Below are positions 60,462-64,000 of a stretch of 64,000 nt of DNA, in pieces (the first letter of the stretch is position 1; every line of letters begins with the position of its first letter). The stretch lies in assembly GCF_003334355.1 (NCBI RefSeq), contig NZ_QOWP01000012.1. One strand, written 5' to 3'. The position numbers and the translations under genes were made by a program. The notes under the pieces were generated by a model. The model ran no database searches. It was not told the origin of the DNA and saw only the letters and a program-made list of their open reading frames with translations. The DNA comes from Escherichia coli (GTDB lineage Bacteria; Pseudomonadota; Gammaproteobacteria; Enterobacterales; Enterobacteriaceae).

Positions 60462-60686
<225 letters not shown>

Positions 60687-63002: not shown

Positions 63003-63136
63003 TATACTCTAAATAATTCGAGTTGCAGGAAGGCGACAAGTGAGTGAATCCCCAGGAGCTTACATAAGTAAGTGACTGGGGTGAGCGAACGCAAACGCAG
63101 CACATGCAACTTGAAGTATGACGAGTATATTTACAG
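63003..63136. repeat. ERIC (enterobacterial repetitive intergenic consensus / IRU) element
   Basis: GTGAATCCCCAGGAGCTTACATAAGTAAGTGACTGGGGTGAGCG core matches the ERIC consensus as I recall it; lies between ybhJ and ybhI. Confidence 0.8.
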
Positions 63137-63842
63137 CATGTTCCAGCCGATCAGCATATTCCACCACCACACGCCGAGGGTGATATGCACCAGGAAGGTT
63201 AATATCGTCAGTACCGCACCGACCAACCACCAGGATTTAATATCGTTATAACCCACGCCAAAGATGACCGGACCTGCCGCGCCGCCATAGTGAGTAACCA
63301 TGCCGCCATAGGAGTTGGAGAACAACAGTGCCAGCGCGGTTAACATTAACGGTGCGCCGGAGACGTTCGCCAGCATGGCAAATACCGGTAACATAGCAAC
63401 GATATAGGCACTACCGGAAGCGAAGAAATAACGCACGATAATGCTGAGGAAAATAATAACGAAGAAAGCAACGTTACCGTGACCATCAAATGCCAGGTTA
63501 TTTTTAAAGACTTCAGCTAACCATTCGAAGAATTTAACTTTCGATAATAAGGAGCTTAAGCCGATAATACCGCCGTACCAGATTAAGGTATTCCAGCCGC
63601 CTTTATTTTTAACCACGTCTTCCCAGGTAACGATACCCAGCAGCAGCATGGTTGCCATAACAACGATTGCCACGGTGGATTCATCAACCCCCAGAGACTT
63701 ACTGAAAATCCAGCCCAGCAGCGCCAGCACAAAGACACCGAGCAGCATTTTTTCGCGGATTTTCATCGGTCCTAGTTCGGCAAGGCCCGCTTTAGCGATG
63801 GTTTTGTTATCCACCTTCTTAATTTCTGGTGGATACATGGTG
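63131..63842 (-). pseudogene. ybhI: 3' fragment (about 236 codons) of DASS-family anion transporter gene ybhI, interrupted by an insertion sequence
   Basis: Translation is the C-terminal half of a DASS (CitT-like) transporter; expected full length about 477 aa; upstream of 63842 the sequence switches to IS10-type DNA. Confidence 0.75.
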
Positions 63843-64000
63843 CTGAGAGATCCCCTCATAATTTCCCCAAAACGTAACCATGTGTGAATAGATTTTGAGT
63901 AAGCAGGGTTGCAGCCACGAGTGAGTCTTCCCTTGTTATTGTGTAGCCAGAATGCCGCAAAACTTCCATGCCTAAGCGAACTGTTGAGAGTACGTTTCGA
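63843..64000 (-). mobile_element. IS10-family (IS4 superfamily) insertion sequence, inside end and 3' part; continues beyond the window
   Basis: Terminus CTGAGAGATCCCCTCATAATTTCCCC matches the IS10 inside end as I recall it; adjacent minus-strand frame encodes the IS10-type transposase C-terminus. Confidence 0.8.
63856..64000 (-). CDS. IS10-type transposase, C-terminal 47 codons (5' part outside the window)
   Basis: Minus-strand translation RNVLSTVRLGMEVLRHSGYTITREDSLVAATLLTQNLFTHGYVLGKL-stop, near-identical to the IS10 transposase C-terminus as I recall it. Confidence 0.75.
   Translation of the reverse strand, partial: RNVLSTVRLGMEVLRHSGYTITREDSLVAATLLTQNLFTHGYVLGKL

Follow-up and report, generated by a model that had tools for sequence, protein, structure and literature searches.

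Transposition of IS10 proceeds by a cut-and-paste mechanism, is carried out by the element's own DDE transposase and produces 9-bp target duplications. Through a GATC sequence, the inside end is sensitive to Dam methylation, and the inside ends of Tn10 also take part in adjacent deletions and inversions. Besides the classical hot-spot consensus GCTNAGC (NGCTNAGCN), a relaxed target consensus, NRCNNNGYN (NPuCNNNGPyN; Kovarik), has been quoted (PMC4574204). IS10-Right is the functional copy (PMC5006887) and IS10-Left is considered inactive or defective (PMC11148124). Solo copies of IS10L are carried by the laboratory strains DH10B, JM109 and XL1-Blue F' (PMC11148124).

We describe here an IS10 end that interrupts the ybhI gene of a natural Escherichia coli isolate (GCA_003334355.1). 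It lies at the right edge of the analysed 64-kb stretch of DNA (64,000 nucleotides), which is called the window below. Tn10 of plasmid R100 was used as the reference; its two IS10 copies were located and then aligned to the segment found in the window. Compared over their full length, the two R100 arms differ at 15 of 1329 nucleotides and at 4 of 402 transposase residues. The closest described system is R100 IS10-Left (NC_002134.1 36132-37460), which has the same 158 bases, inverted repeat, GATC site and last 47 codons, the comparison covering 158 of its 1329 bp. Its inside end adjoins the jemA/gltS-like gene, whereas that of the window adjoins chromosomal ybhI. IS10-Right of Tn10, the reference active IS10, has the same first 29 inside-end bases but is separated from the window by 6 substitutions in 158 bp, which result in L381S, A389T and A398V in the transposase tail. 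The IS10L copies of DH10B, JM109 and XL1-Blue F' represent the IS10-Left allele outside Tn10, as in the window, but these strains are K-12 laboratory derivatives, whereas the window comes from a natural isolate.

The best explanation of the locus is, with a probability of roughly 0.87, a simple insertion of a solo IS10 in its IS10-Left version into the nonamer TACATGGTG, about halfway along ybhI. Both the element and the mechanism are already known, and the case is an ordinary insertion polymorphism at the end of a draft contig. Its expected consequence, the inactivation of a poorly characterised, non-essential DASS-family transporter gene, matters little. The only mildly new point is the use of the nonamer as a recurrent IS10 target.

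The junction between ybhI and the IS10 end

The following features were found at the junction (window coordinates).

63131..63842, minus strand: 3' half of ybhI (nt 723-1434, codons 242-477 and stop), 100% identical to K-12 ybhI
63131..63859, minus strand: chimeric 242-aa ORF (MRGSLST...) from the ORF list, with its ATG start in the IS10 end and its frame continuing into the 3' half of ybhI
63834..63842: target nonamer TACATGGTG (CACCATGTA in the ybhI orientation, ybhI nt 723-731), abutting the first IS base
63843..63865: terminal inverted repeat of the IS10 inside end, CTGAGAGATCCCCTCATAATTTC, by direct reading
63843..64000, minus strand: IS10 inside-end segment of 158 bp (IS10-Left allele; PGAP 'IS4-like element ISVsa5 family'), running to the contig end
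63856..63999, minus strand: tail of the IS10 transposase gene, last 47 codons and stop, with the translation of the IS10-Left tail

By direct reading, the IS10 end starts at 63843 with CTGAGAGATCCCCTCATAATTTCCCC, and its terminal repeat is the same as in the inside ends of both R100 copies. The dam site GATC occupies 63849-63852. A degenerate pattern for both IS10 ends gave a single match in the 64-kb window, at 63843-63864, where dinucleotide shuffles of the window predicted 0.00 matches by chance; the same pattern detected no second IS10 end elsewhere in the window. The 158-base segment matches 1,261 complete E. coli genome records and 1,174 plasmids. The best matches (100% identity, E = 2e-76) are to features annotated as 'IS4-like element ISVsa5 family transposase', and 715 E. 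coli records with an annotated ISVsa5-family transposase match the segment at 100%.

The ybhI gene, located between ybhH and ybhJ, has 477 codons and belongs to the DASS-family anion symporter genes; its K-12 annotation is 'anion permease'. The product of the 3' half matches the Pfam families Na_sulph_symp and CitMHS. The gene is broken at codons 241/242, and the transposase gene points in the same direction as ybhI, the 3' half of which is left without a promoter, start codon and N-terminal half. The initial annotation, made from the sequence alone, had proposed an IS10-type terminal inverted repeat from 63843 onwards, an IS10-type transposase represented by its last 47 residues on the minus strand, and an interruption of ybhI, the middle of which forms the flanking frame. 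All of these readings were confirmed: 63131-63842 corresponds exactly to nt 723-1434 of K-12 ybhI, the translated tail is identical to that of IS10-Left, and an end matching IS10-Left at 158 of 158 positions stands exactly at the ybhI junction. The question of whether 63843-64000 has any significant identity to IS10 is thereby answered as well (158/158 with IS10-Left, 152/158 with IS10-Right). The absence of IS10 from this locus in reference K-12 was also confirmed, K-12 ybhI being uninterrupted.

Since both IS10 ends begin with CTGA, an insertion at the nonamer predicts a product consisting of YbhI residues 1-244, ending in ...TMY and stopped at TGA. In the proposed course of events, an IS10-Left-type copy would have inserted by cut-and-paste into ybhI nt 723-731 of a phylogroup-A-like isolate, which would place the inside end against the ybhI 3' half with the transposase gene in the direction of ybhI. 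Another contig would then carry the outside end (CTGATGAATCCCCTAATGATTTT), the duplicate nonamer and the ybhI 5' half. A simple insertion predicts that the partner junction reads, on the plus strand of the window, ...AAAATCATTAGGGGATTCATCAG followed by TACATGGTG and TAAATCACCAGCGGGGTGACC. The N-terminal YbhI fragment would be terminated at the TGA within the first bases of the IS end, and YbhI would be inactivated. Loss of YbhI in this isolate is thus the expected outcome, and the insertion probably exerts polarity on ybhJ, which lies 158 nt downstream.

The chimeric ORF is present in GenBank as the hypothetical protein RCQ22703.1, as found by an exact look-up. It is most likely an annotation by-product, because a promoter scan of the IS10 end found no promoter-like site directed at the chimeric ORF (nor at the ybhI 3' half or ybhJ). 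RCQ22703.1 is an example of how an IS-end fusion ORF gets into protein databases.

Elsewhere in this flank, the ybhC-ybhJ intergenic region carries tandem repeats of the REP/BIME type (window 60469-60663; a 65-nt pair with 97% and a 35-nt pair with 89% identity), which are ordinary for E. coli.

The allele of the IS10 end

The bases 63843-64000 are identical (158/158) to the inside end of R100 IS10-Left (L004 1404-1561), whereas 152 of 158 agree with IS10-Right. The L-type base is present at all 6 diagnostic positions that lie within the 158 bp (IS10 positions 1249, 1268, 1271, 1272, 1281 and 1300); the allele call rests on these 6, the remaining 9 positions that distinguish L from R falling past the contig end. 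Only the final 47 codons of the 402-aa DDE transposase gene are within the window, and the source contig, as publicly annotated, likewise has a partial gene product of 47 residues. These residues match the end of the R100 IS10-Left transposase (WP_001352368.1) without a difference and include S381, T389 and V398, where IS10-Right has L, A and A. The differences from IS10-Right, on the basis of which a variant copy had been suspected in the initial annotation, are therefore real and 6 in number, but with no mismatch to IS10-Left they are explained by the known IS10-Left allele of Tn10.

The presence of this allele, which forms the left arm of Tn10 in R100, raises the question of whether the segment could be one arm of a complete Tn10 (IS10-Left, tetR/tetA, IS10-Right) in ybhI. 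In R100, it is the outside ends that meet the target, while the inside ends face the tet and jem genes; in the window, the inside end itself adjoins ybhI. The canonical Tn10 junction was rejected on this orientation, which leaves a solo IS10, and we regard a Tn10 arm as extremely improbable.

The contig end

Position 64000 of the window coincides with the terminal base of the draft contig QOWP01000012.1 (GCA_003334355.1; 112,839 bp), the single contig retrieved by an exact look-up of the chimeric ORF; the tail of the window is present there in exact reverse complement. As the contig stops there, the outside end and the second 9-bp copy are unreadable in this assembly. One copy of the expected duplication (TACATGGTG, 63834-63842) lies within the window; the element would have its full length of 1329 bp in this genome, flanked by the 9-bp duplication and the partner junction. 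That only one of the two junctions is available for this genome counts against a simple insertion, as does the target, which agrees with the classical hot-spot consensus at only 2 of its 6 specified bases. The nonamer does fit the relaxed NRCNNNGYN.

The contig stops 158 nt into IS10 as a result of short-read assembly being blocked by a repeat that is present elsewhere in the genome, a case that illustrates how repeated insertion sequences cut draft contigs short. The length of the overhang equals 81 + 77, the innermost L/R-diagnostic position (IS10 position 1249) being 81 nt from the inside end. This length would fit a de Bruijn assembly with k = 77 if this were the sole L-type inside end in a genome with R-type IS10 copies elsewhere. 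The chromosome is not that of K-12; in a comparison over 24.8 kb, the complete genomes nearest to it were PD007 and BS-01, each at 99.9%.

A junction so close to the terminus of a contig from a short-read draft could also arise as an assembly artefact, ybhI having been joined to an unrelated copy of IS10 in a chimeric contig end. The break, however, coincides exactly with base 1 of the IS10 end and lies beside a nonamer that fits the IS10 consensus, and independent public assemblies have IS10 at this very nucleotide, which makes an artefact very unlikely.

IS10 insertions in ybhI of complete genomes

The insertion had been taken for a strain-specific event, and the complete genomes bear this out: among 5,426 complete E. 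coli genomes, there was not one with IS10 at this ybhI position in either orientation. These were searched with three queries, namely the window junction, a synthetic junction of the N-terminal half with the outside end, and a synthetic junction of the N-terminal half with the inside end (the opposite orientation). The ybhI part of the junction query was matched in 5,371 of the 5,426 genomes. Apparent full-coverage junction matches were rejected, since they proved to be IS10 copies at other positions of ybhI, as follows.

MB53: ybhI nt 267-275, duplicated nonamer TACCTGGCT, IS10-Right type
2017-03-3CC: ybhI nt 923-931, duplicated nonamer TGCTGGGTA, 1329/1329 identical to IS10-Left
E9: ybhI nt 923-931, duplicated nonamer TGCTGGGTA, IS10-Right type
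Br_112_kylling: ybhI nt 821-829, duplicated nonamer TGCTCGGTG, IS10-Right type

Each of the four is 1329 bp long and flanked by a perfect 9-bp duplication that fits NRCNNNGYN. Like the window, these genomes carry IS10 in ybhI, but at three other positions; one copy has the orientation seen in the window and the other three are reversed, and the IS10-Right type accounts for three of the four. Solo insertion of IS10 into ybhI is thus a documented type of event.

These genomes also bear on an intramolecular rearrangement promoted by IS10 or Tn10, an adjacent deletion or inversion after which the far side of the element would not be the ybhI 5' half. A single visible junction on a contig that ends 158 nt into the element is what such an event could leave, and Tn10 inside ends are known to take part in such events. 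All four IS10 copies in ybhI of complete genomes are, nevertheless, simple insertions with 9-bp duplications, and the reciprocal junction at exactly the TACATGGTG nonamer is common in other assemblies. We therefore consider a rearrangement improbable, and the simple insertion of a solo IS10 remains the preferred reading.

Elements of another kind were observed in the same gene. IS1 (IS1A, IS1B or of unspecified type) is inserted in the 3' part of ybhI, at about window position 63440 and ~312 nt before the stop codon, in at least 13 complete E. coli genomes (for example, NZ_CP028752.1 3095281-3098300). Together with the IS10 copies, this indicates that ybhI is repeatedly disrupted by several kinds of insertion sequences. 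A literature search found no paper connecting ybhI with IS10, Tn10 or ISVsa5, or naming the assembly accession.

Repeated use of the target nonamer

An exact look-up of the predicted product YbhI 1-244 retrieved 322 public contigs, all of them from Logan and ENA and none from NCBI; the absence from NCBI is probably due to PGAP annotating such genes as pseudogenes. Ten of the 322 places were shown. In nine of these, ...CACCATGTA ran directly into an IS10 end, of which 24-54 nt were present, and the tenth was a plain contig end. The nine reciprocal junctions comprised four with an L-type outside end, three with an R-type outside end and two with the inside end, that is, in the opposite orientation. 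The 10.7-kb flanks of the nine contigs differed by 36-507 pairwise mismatches in an ungapped position-by-position comparison, and the contigs therefore come from different chromosomal backgrounds. The number of independent IS10 insertions at ybhI nt 723-731 among them is roughly eight. The nonamer CACCATGTA is thus a recurrently used IS10 target, and identical insertions there, being convergent, are an unreliable marker of common descent.

As a control, ten further ybhI sites that fit NRCNNNGYN and share the frame class were treated likewise, each by an exact look-up of the truncated product expected from an insertion there. The numbers of contigs with the predicted product were as follows.

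ybhI 723-731 (focal site): 322
ybhI 705-713 (control; 238-aa product): 310
ybhI 267-275 (control): 68
ybhI 912-920 (control): 37
ybhI 435-443 (control): 23
ybhI 1167-1175 (control): 6
ybhI 366-374 (control): 2
ybhI 1224-1232 (control): 1
ybhI 423-431, 840-848 and 1185-1193 (controls): 0 each

Junctions were read at two of the control sites, 705-713 and 267-275. The former was rejected as an IS10 site: its contigs lack one nucleotide, contain an inverted junction or simply end there. Since a site without IS10 thus gave 310 contigs, the product counts are only a rough guide. With this caveat as to the counts, TACATGGTG is, of the sites open to measurement, the one most often used by IS10. At the second control site, 267-275 (YACCTGGCT), IS10 was present in both orientations and in both types in several assemblies.

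The inverted junction at 705-713 lies at the ends of many Logan contigs, for example one of SRR34730168 (with 16 similar places), in which ybhI nt 713 (...CACCCCGCT) is joined to the reverse complement of ybhI sequence ~60 nt downstream (TTAGCGATGGTTTTGTTATCCACC). This join, either a small inversion that is real or an artefact of assembly resembling a hairpin, inflates the count of the 238-aa product.

The nonamers 267-275 and 923-931 of ybhI are recurrent IS10 targets too; TGCTGGGTA holds IS10-Left in 2017-03-3CC and IS10-Right in E9.

Mobility of IS10-Left

Among the E. coli records, 380 have L-type inside ends only, and some of their chromosomes carry 15, 17 or 40+ copies. Chromosomes with 15 to 40+ IS10 copies are exemplified by NZ_CP101269.1 (EC21Z-048), NZ_CP120549.1 (B1172) and NZ_CP103623.1 (strain 3985). 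In these three strains, the best match to the IS10-Right inside end was 96.2%, so all of their inside ends are L-type. Such multi-copy chromosomes with exclusively L-type ends are at odds with the textbook view of IS10-Left as inactive. Taken together with the full IS10-Left flanked by a duplication in ybhI of 2017-03-3CC, they indicate that the L allele is clearly mobile in nature, either with its own transposase or with one supplied in trans. An element usually called inactive is found as solo copies at many independent sites. For the insertion described here, the description of IS10-Left as defective (PMC11148124) makes the source of the transposase uncertain and counts against the proposed explanation; the multi-copy chromosomes with no R-type inside end weigh in the other direction.

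On balance, we lean slightly towards a broader interpretation, in which CACCATGTA would be a previously undescribed natural IS10 hot spot that departs from GCTNAGC and has been used independently, by elements of either type and in either orientation, in about eight or more E. coli lineages, and in which IS10-Left would be spreading actively as a solo element in wild E. coli. Its stronger version, selection for the loss of YbhI, finds no support here.

In GCA_965259555.1 (CBDGWM010000025.1), an otherwise L-type inside end contains an additional G-to-A change at position 43 (GTGTAAATAG in place of GTGTGAATAG), which shows that wild IS10 copies have undergone minor allelic drift.
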